Source of the DNA: a virus
Virus genome (UHGV): UHGV-1435313
Length of the DNA: 19,925 nucleotides
Reading direction: 5' to 3' (one strand)
A program made the translations under genes and the position numbers. Below the pieces are notes generated by a model, which ran no database searches, was not told the origin of the DNA, and was given only the letters and a program-made list of their open reading frames with translations. This document shows, one piece after another, positions 179 through 19,925 of this stretch (positions are counted from its first letter, which is position 1; every line of letters begins with the position of its first letter).

Positions 179-214
179 GTGGATAAAATAATTTTACCCA
201 CCGGATTTTTACCC

Positions 215-1372
215 ATGCTCACCGTTAAGCAGATTGAAGCAGCAAAGCCGAAAGAAAAACCATACCGCCTACTCGATGGTAATGGCCTGTACCTTTATGT
301 CCCTGTGTCAGGGAAAAAGGTATGGCAGCTTCGCTACAAGATTGACGGTAAGGAGAAAATCCTGACCGTAGGAAAATATCCGCTAATGACTTTGCAGGAG
401 GCAAGAGATAAAGCATGGACCGCGAGGAAAGACATCTCGGTTGGCATCGATCCGGTAAAGGCGAAAAAGGCTTCGTCTAACAACAATTCCTTTAGTGCGA
501 TTTACAAGGAATGGTACGAGCACAAGAAGCAAGTCTGGTCAGTAGGCTATGCAAACGAACTTGCCAAAATGTTTGATGACGACATTTTACCCATCATCGG
601 CGGTCTTGAGATTCAGGATATTGAGCCGATGCAACTGTTGGAAGTAATCCGCAGATTTGAAGATCGCGGTGCAATGGAACGAGCCAACAAAGCACGCAGA
701 AGATGCGGCGAGGTTTTCCGTTACGCTATTGTCACCGGAAGGGCTAAATATAACCCGGCACCTGACCTTGCTGACGCCATGAAGGGATACCGCAAGAAGA
801 ACTTCCCGTTTCTTCCTGCAGACCAGATCCCGGCATTCAACAAAGCACTGGCAACATTTTCAGGAAGTATCGTATCGCTCATTGCGACCAAAGTTTTACG
901 CTACACAGCCCTCAGAACAAAAGAGCTTCGTTCCATGCTATGGAAGAACGTCGATTTTGAAAACAGGATTATCACCATCGACGCCAGTGTGATGAAGGGA
1001 CGCAAAATTCATGTGGTCCCGATGTCAGACCAGGTGGTTGAACTTCTAACTACGCTAAGCTCCATCACTAAACCAGTATCAGAGTTTGTTTTTGCCGGAC
1101 GCAACGATAAGAAGAAGCCAATCTGCGAGAACGCGGTATTGCTTGTGATCAAACAAATTGGCTATGAGGGTCTGGAAAGCGGTCACGGATTCAGGCATGA
1201 ATTCAGCACGATTATGAACGAGCACGAATGGCCCGCTGATGCTATTGAAGTGCAACTAGCACATGCCAACGGCGGTTCTGTGCGTGGAATTTACAACCAT
1301 GCTCAGTATCTCGATAAGCGCAGAGAAATGATGCAATGGTGGGCGGACTGGCTTGATGAATATAAGCTATGA
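215..1372 (+). CDS. int: Site-specific tyrosine recombinase, P4/IntS-family prophage integrase (385 aa from ATG 215; the ORF track's start at 179 is a GTG that adds 12 residues)
   Basis: N-terminus MLTVKQIEAAKPKEKPYRLLDGNGLYLYV is a typical P4-family arm-binding domain start. C-terminal catalytic region has GHGFRHEF (H-x-x-R) and the tyrosine in VRGIYNHAQY. It sits directly downstream of the tRNA in the same orientation, as for argW-intS and ssrA-intA in E. coli. Confidence 0.9.
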   Translation: MLTVKQIEAAKPKEKPYRLLDGNGLYLYVPVSGKKVWQLRYKIDGKEKILTVGKYPLMTLQEARDKAWTARKDISVGIDPVKAKKASSNNNSFSAIYKEWYEHKKQVWSVGYANELAKMFDDDILPIIGGLEIQDIEPMQLLEVIRRFEDRGAMERANKARRRCGEVFRYAIVTGRAKYNPAPDLADAMKGYRKKNFPFLPADQIPAFNKALATFSGSIVSLIATKVLRYTALRTKELRSMLWKNVDFENRIITIDASVMKGRKIHVVPMSDQVVELLTTLSSITKPVSEFVFAGRNDKKKPICENAVLLVIKQIGYEGLESGHGFRHEFSTIMNEHEWPADAIEVQLAHANGGSVRGIYNHAQYLDKRREMMQWWADWLDEYKL

Positions 1373-3705: not shown

Positions 3706-6441
3706 TTACTTCTGGTTATCATCACTGTTCATCCAGTACATGATGCCTAGCCTTGATATGGTTTTCTTATCTGATTCTGGAAGTGAGTTGTAAAACGAGC
3801 GCCAAGCAGAAGAGCGTCTTACAGTTGTATCAACGATGCTTTCTGGTGCTTGTTTTACTGCCAGCCTTGCTGCTTTCTGGAATTCTGGTGAGCTAATTAG
3901 CTTTTCTGCAGATTCAATTGATTCAGCGCCGCCCATCGCCCTGATTTTGCTGGCGACTTTTGCCCCAATTTCTGACCCAGCAACAGCACCTACTGCACTG
4001 AACGGTCCTGACACAGTTGAACCAACCGCAGTGCCAATGCGTTGGGCATGGTTAGCAACAAATTCATTTGCCGCAGTGACGCGATTAAACCGTTTGACGA
4101 ACTCGTTTAGTCTTCCTGTAGTTATCTCGTAAGATTTTGCGTCTTTTATAGCCTTTGCGACCTTATATACATCGTTCAGACCTGACATAGTCTCTTTTGG
4201 TAAATGTCGGGCAAGATTGCGCATCTGCCCGTTTGCTAACATGTTTTGATACCAGTCAGCAAACCCTGCAGGATTAAAATCAGCGCCACGTTTTCCGTTC
4301 GAAAGCATATCCCGAAGACCTGTTCCCAGTAGCTCGGTTCTTAGCTTCCTGGACGGCGTGTTTTGCATCAATTCACGAAATCCTTTGGCATCGCCTTTCG
4401 ACATTGCCTGTAGTGCTGTAGTTGCTTTGCGAGAAACATCACCGTTCAGCGTTCTGCCAGTTAGATTAATCATTTGCTCTTCCATGCTTTTTCGCATCTG
4501 AACAAGCCTCTGAGCAACTTCAAAATCACGTAATGCATTTGTCTCTGACAGCGCCGCCTTTTGATCATCGGCGAGCGAACCGTAAAGCCTCGATAAAGCA
4601 GCGCGATCAGCATCTTTATATGGTCCAGAATTCTTATGAAGTGCATCACCAACAAGTCGTCGTTGCTTATTGAGATTTGCATAAGTTAATGCGCCGTTCT
4701 TGCCTGGATTAACTGCCCGAAAGACTCTCTTTTCAATAGGGTCAAGGTTTTTCATCCCGCCAAGATCTTCTGCCACCTGTTTGAGCATTGACCTTGTTGA
4801 TGGCGCATCAATTTTTGCACCTGCAGGCATCGCCTTTTCAACATTGCGATAAAGCTGGTCGCTTCGTTTCATCAGCGCAGACATTCTTCCATTGACCGTA
4901 TCAATAAACTTGTCGCTCATACCAAGAGCATCTTTTGCACCGGAAACGCGATCAATTATCTCCCCCGCGCCCTGTGCTAGCTGCCTGATTGCTTCATTTT
5001 CCTGCACCTGTAGAGCAGAACCCGCACGGGACTTGATTGCTTGCTCAACTGCCTTGTATTGCTCGTTCCCGGAAAAGTGTGAAGGGAGTAATGAATCAAC
5101 ATTAAGCCTTTCAGCAGACTCCAGAACTTCAGCCTGAGGATTGATATCTAGTTCATCAAGCGATGAAGCGAGATTTGGCCTTTTTTGTGCTGCTACTGTG
5201 CGAACGACTTCCTCTGGGTTCCTCGTTGCAGGCGTCATTGGTACACCTTGTGCTACTCTTGCCTCTGCGGCATGAACCGCAGGATTTGTTGCTGCAGCGG
5301 CATCACCGGAGAATGGTGATGTTTCTGTTGCCGCAGTGGTCGCTCTCTGTGCAGATGTTTTATTGCCACTAATTATATTTGATGCACCACGAACACCACG
5401 GGTAACGCCATTTATCAGGCCATGCGTAGCAATGTTAAGTCCGGCATTAATAGCGGCATTTTCGGCAAAATCACCCCGTTGATTCGCCGCGTCAGCGAGA
5501 GAACCAATGACCATGTTTCCAGCTACTCCTGCTCCAGGAACAAGATAACCGCCCATTGACTCTCCAGCTTGCGCATAAGGGTCTGTCGGTCGATCTACTG
5601 GACGATAGACATCGTCCAAAACCTTGGGGCCACCAAGCCCCTGGCTGATTGCATTAATCAGACTTGCGCCACCCTGCAATACGTCAAATGGTATGTTTAC
5701 CAGACCACGACCAGCCTGCTCTGCAATTTGCCCTGCACTTTGACCACCTGTGAGCCAATCGCCAGCTTGTTGCATCAATGATGGTTCTTCACGTGCTGGT
5801 TCATTATTGGCCTGATTAACTGTTTGTTGCTGAACAGGTTTCGGTGCGACAGAACTTACGGGTTGAGGTGGCTGCTGACTGGCTGCCTGCTGCTCAATCT
5901 GAGCAAATGGATTATTTGGGTCTGACTGCACACCTGATGCCGATACTTGTTCGGATGACTGTGCTTCCAGTTGTGCAAACGGGTTGTTAGGGTCTTGCTG
6001 AGGATGTACCTTTGCAGAGGTGGCGCGCTGTTCGACTGTTGAGTCTGTCACCGGGTCACCCGCCCATTGAGCAAAGCGATCATCAACGTAGCCGCGGCCT
6101 TCAGGTCCTGGCGTATATTCACCACGCTTTGCCTTCATAACGTTGCCGGGACCGTCGTGATAAGCCTGAAGAGCGTCACGCCAGTTACCAAACTGCTGGT
6201 ACATCTTTGCCAGATAGCGCGCGCCAGCGTCAGCCTGATATTCGGGGTTTTGCATTTGCTCATCGGTATAACCCATATCACGCCATGTCCCAGGCATGAC
6301 CTGAGTCAATCCTACAGCCCCGGCGGAGCTTACTGCGGCAGGGTTGTAAGAAGACTCCTTGGCACCCAGTGCAGTCATCAACCCTTCTGGCACACCGTAA
6401 CGTGCGCCAGCCTGCTCTAACAAATCACGGTAATTAGCCAT
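3706..6441 (-). CDS. Ejection (internal virion) protein, P22 gp16-position homolog, 911 aa, with N-terminal family-1 lytic transglycosylase (SLT) domain
   Basis: Last gene of the E-protein trio before the tailspike. Residues ~20-100 (coords ~6142-6384) carry SLT motifs: catalytic E-S in [24 protein letters not shown], and AYHDGPGN (the AYNxG-type motif). Start abuts the preceding gene's stop (6441/6442). Confidence 0.75.
5887..5994 (-). repeat. Intragenic direct repeat encoding DPNNPFAQ(L/I)E(A/Q)Q twice, 24 codons apart, in a Gln/Pro-rich linker of the ejection protein
   Basis: Repeated peptide motif at residues 150-161 and 174-185 of the 911-aa protein; corresponding imperfect DNA repeat seen on the + strand (5896-5920 and 5961-5990). 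Confidence 0.5.
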
Positions 6442-18637: not shown

Positions 18638-18880
18638 TCATGCTCCGGCAGTGAACAGGTCTAACGCTTCCTTCGACTTACGCACCGCTTCGATAGTGCG
18701 GGTCGTGATATCCGAATTAGCGCCGCCTGACTGGAAGTGAATTTTGAATAGCTCAAGCTTCAACTCGTCAGTACCAATGAACTGAAATGCTTCTTCTGCG
18801 GCTGCGTTCTGGTTCATGACCAGTTTGTAAATCTCTAGCTGGAATTTCTGTTCTTCAGTCATGGAAATAATCTCTGCCAT
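18638..18880 (-). CDS. Hypothetical protein (80 aa), translationally coupled to the HslV-like gene
   Basis: ATG at 18878-18880 preceded by GGAG at 8 nt; non-hydrophobic, acidic, predicted helical; no recognisable motif. Confidence 0.5.
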   Translation of the reverse strand: MAEIISMTEEQKFQLEIYKLVMNQNAAAEEAFQFIGTDELKLELFKIHFQSGGANSDITTRTIEAVRKSKEALDLFTAGA

Positions 18881-18905
18881 TGTTGGCTCCGTTTATCCGT
18901 TAAAA

Positions 18906-18927
18906 GGGATATCAGTTAAGTTATCCC
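18906..18927 (-). terminator. Hairpin (GGGATA/TATCCC, 10-nt loop) followed by UUUUAA on the - strand, immediately upstream of the 80-aa gene's ribosome-binding site; weak terminator / tR'-like element or operator
   Basis: Seen directly: - strand GGGAUA-ACUUAACUGA-UAUCCC-UUUUAACGG then GGAG and ATG. Confidence 0.3.
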
Positions 18928-19207
18928 GTGTAGGGTATAAGTCATTGTCGAGACCACTCATTGAATGGCCTCTGCAATAACCGATGTCTTTCCATCAGTC
19001 CGCCACCACAAAGAATCTTTTTTGCCATAAGGCTGGAGGTTCATCTTTCAGTGGCTGCCAGTGTTATTTCCCCACTTTCTGGCTTGGGTTGTTTCGCGGT
19101 GCTGCCGTTAATTAGTGACCAGAAATTAACTCCGGTTTCATTATCAAGCCCACCAGTAGATGGGCTTTGTAATGAAGAGTTGTTATGAAAATTGCTCTAA
19201 ACAAGCA

Positions 19208-19696
19208 TTAATAGCCATCAGAAGTAATCGCTACAGATTTCAATCCCTCAATGTCATCCTTGGACAGGGCGAACCATTCACCGTGCTTTCTCTTTGCGGC
19301 AAATTTGCGATGAAGCATGTTTTCAGTTTCTCTTCCACCAGGGATCAGGCACTCAAGCTTCAAGCAGTCTGGTCCAGAGTTGCCAAGCGATTTGATGCGT
19401 TGTGGAATGTTGGATGAATACCCAATTTTGGTTAGCCCAGTTTTCTTCGATGACAAAACGTATACCTGAGGAGGTTCTTTTCTCTGGTCTTCCATTACAC
19501 GTCTCATTGTTGCCATAAGTCCGCCGTGCATCAGCATTTCAACAAAGAACGCTGACCGAACACCTGACGACTTAAGCATGCCAGAAAATTCACTTGCCAA
19601 TTCCATTAACTCTGCGATGTTTTCAGGAACTTTTTGGCAGTTATCTTCCTTGTATAAGGAAATCATTCTTTGAAGCTTTTCTTCTAATTGGTTCAT
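19208..19696 (-). CDS. T5orf172 (MUG113) domain protein, GIY-YIG-like superfamily, putative nuclease; 162 aa from ATG 19694-19696
   Basis: C-terminal half PQVYVLSSKKTGLTKIGYSSNIPQRIKSLG...ETENMLHRKFAAKRKHGEWFALS fits the T5orf172 consensus (vYvl...KIGit...Rl..L...E..lH......EWF). Start chosen at M13 because AAAGGTAAAG precedes it; the track's GTG at 19730-19732 lies inside a hairpin. Confidence 0.7.
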   Translation of the reverse strand: MNQLEEKLQRMISLYKEDNCQKVPENIAELMELASEFSGMLKSSGVRSAFFVEMLMHGGLMATMRRVMEDQRKEPPQVYVLSSKKTGLTKIGYSSNIPQRIKSLGNSGPDCLKLECLIPGGRETENMLHRKFAAKRKHGEWFALSKDDIEGLKSVAITSDGY

Positions 19697-19807
19697 AGCG
19701 TCTTTACCTTTTAGAAAGTGAGCCTGTCTCACAGAAAAGCCGCCCCGAGATGGTCGCCACCATATACGGCAGTTCTCAGGCTCAACTTTCTGAAAGGCTC
19801 GGGTGAT

Positions 19808-19835
19808 GTAATATGCGCGTGAGATGCGCTGTGAA
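19808..19835 (-). promoter_or_regulatory. Candidate sigma70 promoter for the T5orf172 gene (-35 TTCACA, 16-nt spacer, -10 TATTAC on the - strand)
   Basis: Hexamers seen on the - strand just downstream of the terminator at 19846-19871; spacer contains the direct repeat ATGCGC-GTGAG-ATGCGC. Weak match. Confidence 0.2.
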
Positions 19836-19845
19836 ATTCAGATGT

Positions 19846-19871
19846 AAAAAAAGCCCCGCATCGCGAGGCCC
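19846..19871 (-). terminator. Rho-independent terminator (7-bp GC-rich stem, 3-nt loop, U7) on the - strand, ~24 nt downstream of the upstream gene's stop
   Basis: - strand RNA GCCUCGC-GAU-GCGGGGC-UUUUUUU (six G-C pairs and one G-U wobble), seen directly. Confidence 0.6.
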
Positions 19872-19895
19872 ATTCTATTATTCGGGTGCTCATGA

Positions 19896-19925
19896 TCAGG
19901 CCGCCGCATAGAGCAATTTCATCTG
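19896..19925 (-). CDS. 3' end of an upstream - strand gene truncated by the window edge (ends ...QMKLLYAAA, stop TGA at 19896-19898)
   Basis: Open frame running off the window with a stop just before the strong terminator; identity unknown. Confidence 0.3.
   Translation of the reverse strand, partial: QMKLLYAAA

Follow-up and report, generated by a model that had tools for sequence, protein, structure and literature searches.

The window, meaning the whole stretch of 19,925 nt analysed from the virus genome UHGV-1435313, contains a gene-free interval of 327 bp (18881-19207) among genes on the minus strand. The interval lies between the stop codon (19210-19208) of a T5orf172/MUG113 gene and the ATG (18880) of a DUF2560 gene. 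The original prediction described a non-coding interval in a tightly packed region, and this description holds. The adjoining genes overlap or are spaced by only 1-5 nt in either case.

A number of features precede the interval on the minus strand. Next to the moron region, on its upstream side, is the 3' end of a KilA-N-domain gene (19896-19925), which the window edge truncates. Positions 19925-19896 show a 94.5% match to the end of annotated KilA-N genes of E. coli prophages, and the place of this gene is filled in relatives by gp73 of HK022 and HK97 and by hkbK of HK620. A remnant of an hkbL-like gene, roughly 14 codons long, is followed by a canonical intrinsic terminator (19844-19871), GGGCCUCGCGAUGCGGGGCUU and then U7, upstream of the T5orf172 cassette. 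The terminator scan called it at 19871-19851 with nine pairs, six of them G-C, and its folding energy is -13.5 kcal/mol. The matching terminator is annotated as rho-independent in HK106 and epsilon34. The T5orf172/MUG113 gene (19208-19696, GIY-YIG clan) is a moron gene identified by Pfam PF13455 (7e-15) and PF10544 (3e-10). Counted from the ATG at 19696 its product has 162 aa, as do HK106 gp64 and epsilon34 gp68; the mechanical ORF begins at a GTG (19732).

Downstream of the interval, a Shine-Dalgarno (SD) sequence, GGAG (18889-18886), and the DUF2560 gene (18880-18638; PF10834, 3e-43) occupy 18638-18889 on the same strand. Equivalents of this gene are P22 orf80, HK620 hkbM, and Sf6 gp67. Its start codon is the right-hand limit of the conserved non-coding block. 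From the ATG onward, a gene other than DUF2560 is found in L148 and L149, and HK022 and HK106 retain no more than the first ~66 nt of DUF2560 before an HNH gene. The only integrase-like ORF in the window (179-1372) is beside a tRNA fragment at the prophage end, away from the cassettes.

The interval itself contains three hairpins, all on the minus strand. The original prediction listed an AAGCCCA/TGGGCTT hairpin at 19167-19146. It is present, and it is longer than was claimed. This hairpin, hp1, spans 19181-19128 and consists of a 9-bp upper stem (AAGCCCAUC/GGUGGGCUU), a 6-bp lower stem (UCAUUA/UAAUGA), and a further helix of 6 bp (AACUCU/GGAGUU), with a folding energy of -25.4 kcal/mol (MFE helices). 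After hp1 comes a variable linker (19112-19127), delimited from variant tables of relatives. At least three versions of it exist, one with a 60-nt insert and one with a CUGG-GNRA-CCAG mini-hairpin. Conservation and the variant tables then delimit a universal non-coding core of ~126-129 nt (18983-19111). It is followed by hp2 (18982-18940), which the original prediction missed and which is the strongest local hairpin, with 18 bp and -23.5 kcal/mol. The MFE structure gives hp2 a lower stem of GGUUAUUG/CAAUGACU and an upper stem of GAGGCCAUUC/GAGUGGUCUC. An RNase III site has about two turns of double-stranded RNA with an internal loop; the predicted shapes of hp1, with 21 bp split over three segments, and of hp2, with 18 bp and a 2x2 internal loop, are compatible with this. 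The second hairpin of the original prediction, GGGAUA/UAUCCC (18927-18906) followed by U4 (18905-18902), is also present. This hairpin, hp3 (18902-18927), has a folding energy of -8.3 kcal/mol, lies 21 nt upstream of the DUF2560 start codon, and looks like a weak terminator. It is also kept by phages that lack the core, for example Stx2 phage 1717 and phage Ayreon. Overall, among 131 windows of 341 nt taken from the full 19.9 kb, none is more structured than the interval. Its fold z-score is -5.96 on the sense strand versus -2.6 on the antisense strand, and the background has a mean of -0.83 and an sd of 1.45.

Lysis genes, late promoter, and terminators

The lysis genes are not lost. Their reported absence from the expected position is an artefact of the window edge. 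The window ends inside the KilA-N gene, so nothing about the absence of lysis genes can be read from it. In HK620, HK97, and HK022 the order is S-R-Rz, KilA-N (with hkbL), the interval, and then a DUF2560 or HNH gene. HK620 has the full layout of Q-pR'-qut-tR'-S-R-Rz-hkbK(KilA-N)-hkbL, the interval, hkbM(DUF2560)-hkbN-gene 3, and its logic is repeated in HK106, epsilon34, P22, HK022, Sf101, Sf6, and HK97. Since S-R-Rz are upstream of KilA-N in these relatives, the lysis genes of this phage are expected at least 0.7 kb past the window edge.

A Q-dependent late promoter with a tR'-like terminator had also been proposed for the interval. This proposal is not supported. Such a promoter (pR') is of the sigma-70 type, comes right after gene Q and before the holin gene, and overlaps a Q-utilisation site (qut). 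Annotated relatives have pR', qut, and tR' in the stretch from Q to the holin gene, and in HK620, HK106, and epsilon34 the annotation puts pR' and qut between Q and S. Gene Q is outside the window. A promoter scan of 17600-19925 found no sigma-70-like promoter on either strand. An intrinsic terminator was taken to be a G+C-rich stem-loop directly followed by ~5-8 U. No tR'-like terminator of this kind was called in the interval by the scan that recovers the genuine terminator at 19871-19851. Neither hp1 nor hp2 has a U-run, and GAUAAUG or GACAAUG comes after the stem. In the case of hp3, the scan fails with six pairs, -8.3 kcal/mol, and U4 only. The interval does resemble the lambda-type pR'-qut-tR' region in being non-coding, hairpin-bearing, and within the late operon. 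However, that region separates Q from the holin gene and in relatives precedes the interval by 2-3 kb, and the interval has neither a promoter-like site nor a strong terminator. The original prediction had named, as an outcome that would speak against it, a lysis cassette and promoter just past the edge together with a conserved and inert spacer. This is largely what was found, except that the spacer does not look inert but structured and constrained.

Coding capacity and known RNA elements

The interval is shown not to be protein-coding. Small ORFs have been annotated here in relatives, namely P22 orf25, Sf101 gp64, the N-terminus of ST64T orf118, and a misc_feature in epsilon34. The candidate ORFs, of 21-28 aa on the sense strand and 43 and 75 aa on the antisense strand, were rejected on account of start loss, stops, and frameshifting A-run variants. 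The variants that break them include ATG to ATA, CAG to TAG, TAT to TAA (which is ATG to AAG in the other frame), A-runs of A5-A7, and a 1-nt deletion. No SD sequence could be read from the sequence before the candidate starts, and P22 orf25 starts within the hp2 loop, also without one. In addition, the C-termini of the candidate ORFs differ with each insert.

An independent small RNA, another of the earlier suggestions, is not supported. There is no promoter, and a scan of Rfam 15 (E <= 10) gave as its best match in the interval Proteo-phage-1, with 16.8 bits against a threshold of 42 (E = 6.5). The Rfam families of AgvB, AsxR, and STnc100 had no match at the gathering threshold, and a tRNA/tmRNA scan found none. 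The matching part of prophage BTP1 is included in 386959-397372 of D23580. No ncRNA is annotated in that region in a 17-condition transcriptome of the lysogen, and the eight new BTP1 sRNAs of D23580 all map elsewhere.

Other known elements were also considered and rejected. ORF1 contains WWRT, as TrpL does, and this prompted the idea of a trp-leader-like attenuator. ORF1 is disrupted in about 15% of distinct copies, however, and hp3 is a poor terminator. Q-modified polymerase ignores terminators, which was also counted against an attenuator. The ACCUCCU in the core, a possible anti-Shine-Dalgarno mimic, is among its most variable stretches. The base composition does not suit a Rho-utilisation site, with C at most 0.30 and G at least 0.13-0.25. 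The position of the hairpins past stop codons fits an integron attC-like site, but the arms read from the sequence are CATTAC and GATAATG and not the R-box GTTRRRY. No integron-type integrase was found.

The hairpin family and the conserved core

It was shown that hp1 and hp2 belong to one hairpin family, whose stem pairing is maintained through compensatory changes, and this on the sense strand alone. The family pattern is CAUUAC-AA-(9-bp stem)-UGA-UAAUG, with a variable stem of 9 bp and a loop of 4 nt. The lower stem and internal loop, CAUUAC/UGAUAAUG, are invariant. Two alignments document the pairing. Alignment A4 holds 36 distinct interiors of an unconstrained 16-nt slot, and 99.4% of its cells are paired. 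All six of the free pairs, meaning those that the search pattern leaves open, have changes on both sides. None of 500 shuffles was as high, and slid controls gave 26-49%. In alignment A2, 93.3% of cells are paired, six pairs and 26 cells have two-sided changes, and again 0/500 shuffles were as high. Covariance scores of the family are 45-67 bits on the sense strand versus about 20-26 bits on the antisense strand. The family motif of hp1 (19177-19136) scores 60.3 bits with model R1 and 64.1 bits with model R2, versus 20 bits on the opposite strand. The second member, hp2, scores 66.7 bits with R1 and represents the allele of the empty site. Changes in hp2 that preserve pairing are exchanges between G.U and A-U, seen in 25 of 63 sequences, and other one-sided changes. 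When hp2 is compared with the allele of the occupied site, double compensatory changes are found. G.T pairs are tolerated in single-stranded DNA too, so a function as a DNA hairpin remains compatible.

The family has a preferred position. Across 131 contexts, the hairpin usually starts 1-6 nt past a stop codon (median 4 nt from the upstream stop on the same strand), and the genes before it come from at least 14 unrelated families. One copy is flanked by an Ig-domain structural gene and a DUF6246 gene, which do not look like accessory cassettes. Some inserted cassettes have their own canonical terminator just ahead of the hairpin, and thus the hairpin is not needed to end the transcripts of those cassettes. 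The family is absent from Rfam, and lambda has no copy. A literature search with the hairpin sequence returned unrelated primer matches only, and the genome papers of epsilon34 and phage L do not discuss the interval.

The interval is widely distributed. It matches 210 phage records, and identity is 90-99% in more than 200. Of 5426 complete E. coli genomes, 1120 carry the 129-nt core at 95-99% identity, and it was found in HK97, HK022, P22, Sf6, HK620, and epsilon34. At least five different contexts occur on its left and at least five on its right, and at either end the mosaic boundary is sharp. Rha-type phages lack hp1, and there the core comes directly after the rha stop codon. Of the core, just the initial ~50 nt remain in ES18 and L137, and in L131 it is interrupted by an IS element. 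All copies recovered share at least about 91% identity. When one genome per species was scanned, the result was only near-identical copies (E. coli, Shimwellia pseudoproteus, and misbinned MAG contigs) and four chance matches.

The sharp boundaries and low diversity of the core argue that it is under constraint. Nucleotide diversity is 0.035 in the core, 0.024 in hp2, and 0.014 in hp3 plus the SD sequence. In DUF2560 it is 0.076 at third and 0.008 at second codon positions. These estimates are biased downward by sampling that was anchored on exact words; even so, 118 of the 128 sequences anchored at the 5' end retain the exact 3' 20-mer. The low diversity of the core could also partly reflect recent spread. 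Variable positions and A-run indels of the core lie in the predicted apical loop, and the predicted stems are constant. The predicted core helices are invariant, with double changes in 0 of 62 pairs (63 distinct sequences, 98% identity).

The moron hotspot and possible functions of the interval

The window contains the unoccupied form of a known hotspot for the insertion of accessory genes (“morons”). The hotspot junction is at 18983|18982, between the core and hp2 and immediately 5' of hp2. Five junction classes follow ...GACATC (18983), each continuing into a hairpin of the hp2 type. These are the empty form and inserts of 139 nt, ~278 nt, ~390-414 nt, and ~424-448 nt. Each insert encodes different small proteins, for example the Sf6 gp66 family or a cassette with a 23-aa ORF. 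Related phages thus carry no insert or unrelated inserts at one position, as is characteristic of a moron site in the sense of Juhala and Hendrix. Of the expression signals compared, terminators and SD sequences, a canonical terminator closes two insert classes, and an SD sequence is all that the 23-aa and Gp49-family inserts show. Arrays of cassettes also exist, with one hairpin per unit.

Crossovers are shown to fall inside the family hairpins. Phage L118 has a chimeric hairpin, and Stx2 phage 1717 has a single hairpin in place of hp1, core, and hp2. The original prediction had mentioned a recombination scar where modules were swapped. This part of it is supported to some extent by a documented moron site, at least five kinds of junction sequence, and the crossovers within hairpins.

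The interval between orf25 and orf80 of P22 is a homologous locus (Cenens et al., 2013; PMC3573128), and its core, hp2, and an hp3 variant align with the window. In the available part of that account, pid of P22 is a moron that brings its own promoter and terminator, at a site that is empty in one relative (PS34) and differently filled in others. The pid site is slightly downstream of the core-hp2 junction, and the window matches its no-insert state. P22 differs from the window in that pid lies in reverse orientation downstream of hp2 and hp3, rha is upstream instead of T5orf172, and hp1 is missing. The same part of the account does not mention a hairpin family or a conserved core.

On balance, we favor, though well short of certainty, the reading that the interval is a conserved non-coding spacer of a moron hotspot, with hairpins of RNA type, in P22-like and HK97-like prophages. 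As a spacer within the Q-dependent late operon, it would be transcribed without being translated; the prophage would be P22-like with an Sf6-type small terminase, and the spacer would be placed between the post-lysis moron region and the packaging genes. Its parts would form a mosaic of four, that is, hp1 closing the T5orf172 cassette, the core, hp2, and hp3 with the DUF2560 ribosome-binding site. In late and moron transcripts the hairpins may be structures near stop codons that shield the 3' end of the cistron before them or direct its processing, either as a barrier to 3'-5' exonucleases or as an RNase III-type site. This RNA-level role is suggested by strand asymmetry, covariation, and position. 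Because the outer 10-nt flanks are nearly invariant, the hairpins could also be short homology patches for the exchange of cassettes between phages. The family is most likely both an mRNA hairpin and a recombination joint, as far as sequence comparison indicates. In addition, hp3 together with the long stretch lacking translation may, in the lysogen, reduce the read-through of moron-promoter transcripts into the terminase genes.

A bolder version of this reading can be offered only tentatively. The hairpin would be an undescribed cis-acting RNA element in the late operons of enterobacterial temperate phages, and its invariant lower stem and internal loop would be recognised by a factor of host or phage, such as RNase III or another RNA-binding protein. 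The element would set the fate of the mRNA of the upstream cistron. It would also be a joint for cassette shuffling, and the 126-nt core would be a processed ncRNA in about a fifth of sequenced E. coli genomes.

Other explanations have to be weighed against the conserved spacer. It is unlikely that the interval is a neutral mosaic scar, left over and hitch-hiking with lysis/moron modules, whose conservation reflects recent spread and whose hairpins are functionless remnants of moron terminators. Such a scar would fit the fact that all copies are at least ~91% identical and occur only in enterobacterial temperate phages, as well as the partial cores of ES18 and L137 and the IS-split core of L131; such similar segments are common in the lambdoid gene pool. 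It does not fit the compensatory changes at every free stem position of the family, the pairing kept on the sense strand only, a diversity 2-5 times below that of neighbouring synonymous sites, or the independent junctions that cluster exactly at the core ends and not inside. Rather unlikely, too, is a core that is an ncRNA of its own, as an sRNA cut from the late/moron transcript at the flanking hairpins or as a cis-acting leader for downstream genes. The core is a discrete unit of about 126 nt, sharply bounded on both sides, present in a fifth of complete E. coli genomes, and strongly folded in prediction with variation confined to the apical loop. However, it lacks a promoter, a proper terminator, an Rfam match, and an annotated ncRNA at D23580 386959-397372, its constant pairs offer no covariation, and in Rha-type phages without hp1 it merely trails the rha stop codon.

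An insulator appears improbable as the main function. In this explanation the structured stretch up to hp3-U4 stops moron transcripts of the lysogen before the terminase genes, and Q-modified polymerase reads through. The position directly upstream of the packaging genes fits, and hp3 with its U-run is conserved even without the core. A stretch of 327 nt without translation would expose RNA to Rho, which was counted in favor. Against it, hp3 is weak and fails the terminator scan, and the interval is not C-rich and G-poor, while strong folding disfavors Rho loading. The insulator is compatible with the conserved spacer and is not exclusive of it. It is very improbable that the hairpins, folded in single-stranded DNA, are attC-like cassette boundaries for a dedicated recombinase or nuclease. 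Their strand specificity, their place directly past the stop codons of cassettes, the conserved outer arms around a centre that varies yet always pairs, and the arrays with one hairpin per cassette are what such sites would show. The missing integron-type integrase, the arms unlike the attC consensus, and the copy beside the Ig-domain structural gene speak against them, and ordinary homologous recombination on the 10-nt arms and adjoining identity would explain the chimeras. Scarcely credible is the late promoter with a tR'-like terminator of the original prediction, or a small protein of the kind of P22 orf25 or the ST64T orf118 N-terminus. The small ORFs annotated in P22, Sf101, and epsilon34 are in its favor. 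The location of pR', qut, and tR' between Q and S in relatives, the lack of a promoter-like site here, and ORFs that are broken in many copies, lack an SD sequence in the case of orf25, and change their C-termini with the insert all count against it.

Similar features are known from other systems. Susskind and Botstein, and Clark and co-workers in 2001 for HK620, are said to have described lambdoid “boundary sequences” and a linker hypothesis of modular exchange. Like the hairpins, these are short sequences common to otherwise different phages at module junctions where homology starts or stops. The hairpin arms CATTACAAAG and CTTGATAATG are nearly invariant and flank many different genes, and a crossover within the hairpin was directly seen. 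Unlike a pure patch of DNA homology, the hairpin has a covarying stem on one strand. The only boundary sequence annotated in the compared records, bsq7 of Sf6, is inside Rz and is not a family hairpin. Intercistronic mRNA hairpins include the REP-type 3' stabilisers of E. coli operons and the RNase III sites between T7 genes. The family resembles these as a stable stem-loop with an internal loop, between cistrons near the end of the upstream ORF, and without a U-tract. It differs in having no sequence similarity to REP and no Rfam match, and its stem, at 14-18 bp, falls short of the length of a classical RNase III substrate. The prophage sRNAs AgvB, AsxR, and Pas of pathogenic E. coli are, like the interval, non-coding and tied to lambdoid moron sites. 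AgvB and AsxR are found at a moron site just downstream of pR' (PMC4104026). Pas genes are next to Q and the holin/lysozyme genes, with PasA and PasC beside a RusA/TerB/DUF1627 set (bioRxiv 10.64898/2026.05.13.724894). The EHEC anti-sRNAs and the Pas sRNAs thus belong to the Q/pR'-holin region, unlike the interval, and map position sets Pas apart.

As it was flagged, the observation is ordinary, a known variable region of P22-like phages at the edge of a window. What has been added is the precise anatomy of a post-lysis moron hotspot, a hairpin family that Rfam lacks, that covaries unusually cleanly, and that is placed at the stop codons of 14 or more unrelated genes of late operons, and a sharply bounded non-coding unit of 126 nt carried by roughly every fifth complete E. 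coli genome. If the hairpins are both mRNA elements and crossover points, they would bear on whether mosaic joints form at conserved linkers or by random illegitimate recombination followed by selection, and they would offer a mutable and testable handle on that question. Recognition of the hairpins could also spare annotators spurious calls of small ORFs such as orf25.

Gene order around the interval

The genes at the high-coordinate end of the window all lie on the minus strand. The final 30 nt of a KilA-N-domain gene (19925-19896), recognized by comparison with E. coli prophages, come first. They are followed by roughly 14 codons belonging to an hkbL-like gene (from 19893), a canonical terminator with a U-run (19871-19851), the T5orf172/MUG113 gene (19696-19208), the interval (19207-18881), the DUF2560 gene (18880-18638), a gene for a 162-aa protein (18636-18148), and the genes for an Sf6-type small terminase (18142-17717) and the large terminase. 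The packaging-side genes are spaced by 1-5 nt or overlap, and thus a gap of 327 nt is unusual at this end of the window.

The annotated order in HK620 is Q, pR', qut, tR', S, R, Rz, hkbK (KilA-N), hkbL, the homologue of the interval, hkbM (DUF2560), hkbN, and gene 3. HK106, epsilon34, P22, HK022, Sf101, Sf6, and HK97 are organized alike, except that the accessory genes following Rz differ. The outermost 73 nt of the window match E. coli prophage sequence that covers the end of a KilA-N gene and the beginning of the gene after it. Therefore, the lysis cassette, which the original prediction took to be missing, is expected beyond the edge; the window stops within the KilA-N gene, and Rz is further upstream in HK620. 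The interval was also proposed to contain a Q-dependent late promoter with a tR'-like terminator. This does not appear to be the case. The relatives carry both between Q and the holin gene, and a scan of both strands of 17600-19925 returned no sigma-70-like promoter. The terminator at 19871-19851 was the only convincing one in the same scan.

The 162-aa protein (18148-18636, minus strand) begins with MTTIAWDG, and its gene separates DUF2560 from the small terminase gene. No Pfam family matches it. Its only hit, to a proteasome beta subunit, is non-significant (E = 0.94), and some E. coli records carry the annotation 'ubiquitin carboxyl-hydrolase' at this position. The earlier idea of an HslV-like protein (an Ntn-hydrolase whose N-terminal residue is Thr) is plausible, though unproven. 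At the other end of the window, positions 1-60 look, on the minus strand, like the 3' portion of a tRNA gene (...GGTGTCCCCTGCAGGAATCGAACCTGCAATTAGCCC...), adjoined by a 397-aa ORF (179-1372, plus strand) in the position of a prophage integrase. This end is thus probably a prophage/att junction.

A hairpin family placed after stop codons

The interval does not encode a protein. Small ORFs have been annotated in the region: P22 orf25, Sf101 gp64, and an epsilon34 feature named "N-terminus of ST64T orf118". The start ATG of orf25 lies within the loop of a hairpin, hp2, without a Shine-Dalgarno sequence, and its counterpart here is a 22-codon ORF (18961-18893). Two sense-strand ORFs begin in the central part of the interval (the core), MNLQPYGKK... 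(19044) and MAKKILCGGG... (19028). Both were rejected as genes. Their homologues show loss of the start (ATG to ATA; ATG to AAG), gained stops (CAG to TAG, TAT to TAA), and frameshifts from A5/A6/A7 variants of an A-run and from a 1-nt deletion in other copies, and their C-terminal parts vary with whichever sequence adjoins the core. Antisense ORFs are broken by the same indels.

The interval is strongly folded. Both hairpins named in the original prediction are present, the first as part of a longer hairpin, hp1 (19181-19128, minus strand, -25.4 kcal/mol), and the other as hp3 (18927-18906 followed by U4, minus strand), which is weak (-8.3 kcal/mol). Between them is hp2 (18982-18940, minus strand), which had been overlooked; its two stem segments, of 8 and 10 bp, are separated by a 2x2 internal loop (-23.5 kcal/mol). 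Compared with shuffled controls, the RNA fold of the interval has z = -5.96 in the sense direction and z = -2.6 in antisense. Among 131 overlapping 341-nt folding windows on that strand over the whole 19.9 kb (background mean z -0.83, sd 1.45), it ranks first for structure, with z = -6.2 to -6.7. The stretch 425-85 (341 nt) is the second most structured on the minus strand (z = -5.8).

The hairpins hp1 and hp2, and those that follow inserts in related phages, are versions of one motif. At its base, CAUUA pairs with UAAUG to form the lower stem. A small internal loop, with C-A on its 5' side and G-A on its 3' side, separates this from an upper stem of 9-10 bp, which is capped by a loop of 3-6 nt. 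The stem covaries. In 14 observed variants, 93.3% of the pair cells are standard pairs and 6 pairs (26 cells) are altered on both sides; the covariation score was reached by 0/500 shuffles, a control that ignores relatedness, and sliding the partners lowered pairing to at most 53%. For a second test, a viral contig collection was searched for the two invariant arms, allowing any sequence of 16-24 nt to separate them. The matches listed contain at least 40 distinct interiors, nearly all perfect stem-loops, with two having a single mismatch. Among them, the 36 of standard length show compensatory double changes at all six pairs free of the search pattern (for example, C-G/G-C/U-G and A-U/C-G/G-C), with 99.4% of cells paired against 26-49% in slid controls. 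Shuffles, again without regard to relatedness, equalled the observed value in 0/500 cases on three of five measures and in 1/500 for the count of double-change pairs.

G.U pairs are frequent in the motif, one being nearly fixed, and covariance models give 45-67 bits for the sense strand versus about 20-26 bits for the opposite strand. The structure is therefore selected on the strand transcribed with the late genes. This bias points to a family that acts as RNA, although folding in the equivalent DNA strand is a conceivable alternative.

A same-strand ORF of at least 60 aa ends within 150 nt upstream of the motif in 105 of 131 distinct contexts, with a median stop-to-hairpin gap of 4 nt (1 nt in 42 cases). 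The upstream genes belong to at least 14 unrelated families, including Rz, Rha (two types), KilA-N+P63C, T5orf172, hkbL-like, Sf6 gp65-like, and an Ig-domain protein of about 250 aa. The length of the latter, its ...TVTAS C-terminus, and its location before a DUF6246 gene make it a probable major tail subunit; this assignment draws on resemblance and on Ig-domain Pfam hits, two of the four being just under the curated cut-off, and is not a family match. The genes downstream are often small terminases. At the locus, two copies are present in HK97, HK620, and Sf6, and one in P22 and epsilon34. Covariance-model searches found no copy in lambda and none in the window beyond hp1 and hp2. In one phage (L027, 4736-5611), an 89-aa ORF between Q and the holin gene has a copy 1-2 nt after it with a different but compensated upper stem, followed by a terminator-like hairpin and a 172-aa gene whose sequence motifs suggest a homing endonuclease of the NUMOD/HNH type.

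The core, its boundaries and the insertion hotspot

Aligning about 120 distinct copies revealed four units: hp1, a linker, the core (19111-18983), and hp2 with hp3. An upstream accessory gene, hkbL-like, Sf6 gp65-like, or T5orf172, precedes hp1. When rha is upstream, hp1 is absent and the rha stop codon is at the left edge of the core. The linker has at least three versions. The commonest, homologous to 19127-19112, contains a 4-bp mini-hairpin, CUGG-NNNN-CCAG, whose loops (GCAA, GUAA, GAAA) are all GNRA tetraloops; the window's linker has lost it.

At least five left contexts converge on the core at ...TTA(A)CGGCAG, and at least five continuations diverge directly after ...GGAAAGACATC (18983). 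After GACATC, hp2 follows at once in this window. In relatives there can be a 139-nt insert with a 23-aa ORF and a strong Shine-Dalgarno sequence, inserts of about 278 nt (62-aa ORF) or about 390-414 nt (72-aa ORF), each with its own terminator, or one of about 424-448 nt encoding the Gp49-family protein Sf6 gp66. After each insert come an hp2-type hairpin, GAYAATGGCTTATACCC, and hp3. P22 has the reverse-oriented pid gene slightly further downstream, and the hotspot itself is already known through the P22 pid site, where related phages are reported to carry another insert or, as in PS34, none (PMC3573128). Thus, the window carries a known hotspot in its unoccupied state.

Past hp2 and hp3, the conserved block extends as far as the start codon of the gene that follows. 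In Shimwellia pseudoproteus (L148, 5236-5471) and an E. coli locus (L149), a MAKLTDKQEL... gene replaces DUF2560 from the ATG, so core, hp2, hp3, and Shine-Dalgarno sequence behave as a portable leader. HK022 and HK106 keep just the first ~66 nt of DUF2560, ahead of the HNH endonuclease gene gp74 (fusion at 2295-2400 in the HK022 locus and ~4050-4165 in the HK106 locus). This recombination joint lies inside a coding sequence and connects P22-like with HK97-like late operons.

Over 47 distinct sequences sharing the entire region, nucleotide diversity is 0.035 in the core, 0.024 in hp2, and 0.014 in hp3 with the Shine-Dalgarno sequence, and 0.076 and 0.008 at DUF2560 third and second codon positions. 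Core variation is mostly in the first 20 nt and at a few sites of the predicted apical loop, and an exact 20-mer in the 3' half is kept by 118 of 128 copies anchored on a 5' word. The sharp, repeatedly used boundaries and the low diversity suggest that the core is under constraint. Its predicted helices are invariant (double changes in 0/62 pairs; covariation term -0.3 kcal/mol). The scan of 17600-19925 found no promoter or terminator of its own, and the D23580 transcriptome has no ncRNA annotation over the core-bearing part of BTP1 (between 386640-386959 and 397372-397660). ES18 and one contig retain just the first ~50 nt. In one locus (L131, ~10310-10420), an insertion sequence whose end resembles IS3-family termini splits the core inside the A-run.

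The 210 phage records that match the interval come from phages of Salmonella, Escherichia, and Shigella and, in a few cases, of Klebsiella and Enterobacter. Both P22-like podoviruses and HK97-like cos-packaging siphoviruses (such as HK97, HK022, HK106, mEp235) are represented. The 129-nt core is present in 1120 of 5426 complete E. coli genomes, nearly always at 95-99% identity and with no feature annotation. Scanning one genome per prokaryotic species found only nearly identical copies, in E. coli, Shimwellia pseudoproteus, and a few contigs of unrelated MAGs, apparently phage DNA that was misbinned. The searches yielded no copy below about 91% identity. Sampling throughout the analysis used exact-word anchors and collections of at most 120 stretches per scan, and many contigs are near-duplicates of a few phage lineages.

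Exchange between hairpins and a possible role

In Stx2 phage 1717 and phage Ayreon there is just one hairpin, and GATAATGG(C/T)TTATACCC and then hp3 come immediately after it. At that position the window has hp1, linker, core, and hp2, with GATAATG on the left and GACAATG on the right. This is the pattern that would be expected if core and hairpin were gained or lost together by exchange between hairpin copies. The alleles of hp2 without and with an accessory-gene insert at 18983|18982 show paired differences that keep the stem. In one locus (L118), the hairpin is chimeric, with a 5' arm of the occupied-site type and a 3' arm of the empty-site type, and thus a crossover took place within it.

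The late transcript would carry the interval, as would, probably, transcripts started at the promoters of morons (phage accessory genes). Near a stop codon, the hairpins could protect the upstream cistron's 3' end or set its position, possibly as a barrier to exonucleases. They may instead form an RNase III-type site, since the stem is long and has an internal loop. The invariant arms could also supply short identity for cassette swapping, and hp3 with the long untranslated stretch may lower read-through into the terminase genes in lysogens. Non-coding status, covariation, strand bias, placement after stop codons, the hotspot, and the crossovers are shown by the data, and the biochemical role is inferred. 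Structured RNA hairpins and cassette joints at a hotspot are, by a modest margin over even, the probable overall reading, with the RNA-level role and the core being its main uncertainties.

Rfam has no counterpart of the motif, its sequence was not found in the searchable literature, and no earlier description was found of this hairpin family with its covarying stem or of the discrete 126-nt core. The result ranks with intercistronic mRNA hairpins and mosaic joint sequences rather than as a new type of system. Conserved junction sequences in lambdoid phages are an old idea (boundary sequences, the linker hypothesis). The sole boundary-sequence feature in the records compared, Sf6 bsq7, is a different sequence inside Rz (L007, 980-1027). 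It contains CATTACCGTGATAATG, which corresponds to both lower-stem arms of the hairpin with no upper stem between them. The resemblance may be coincidental, or it may hint at how the motif arose.
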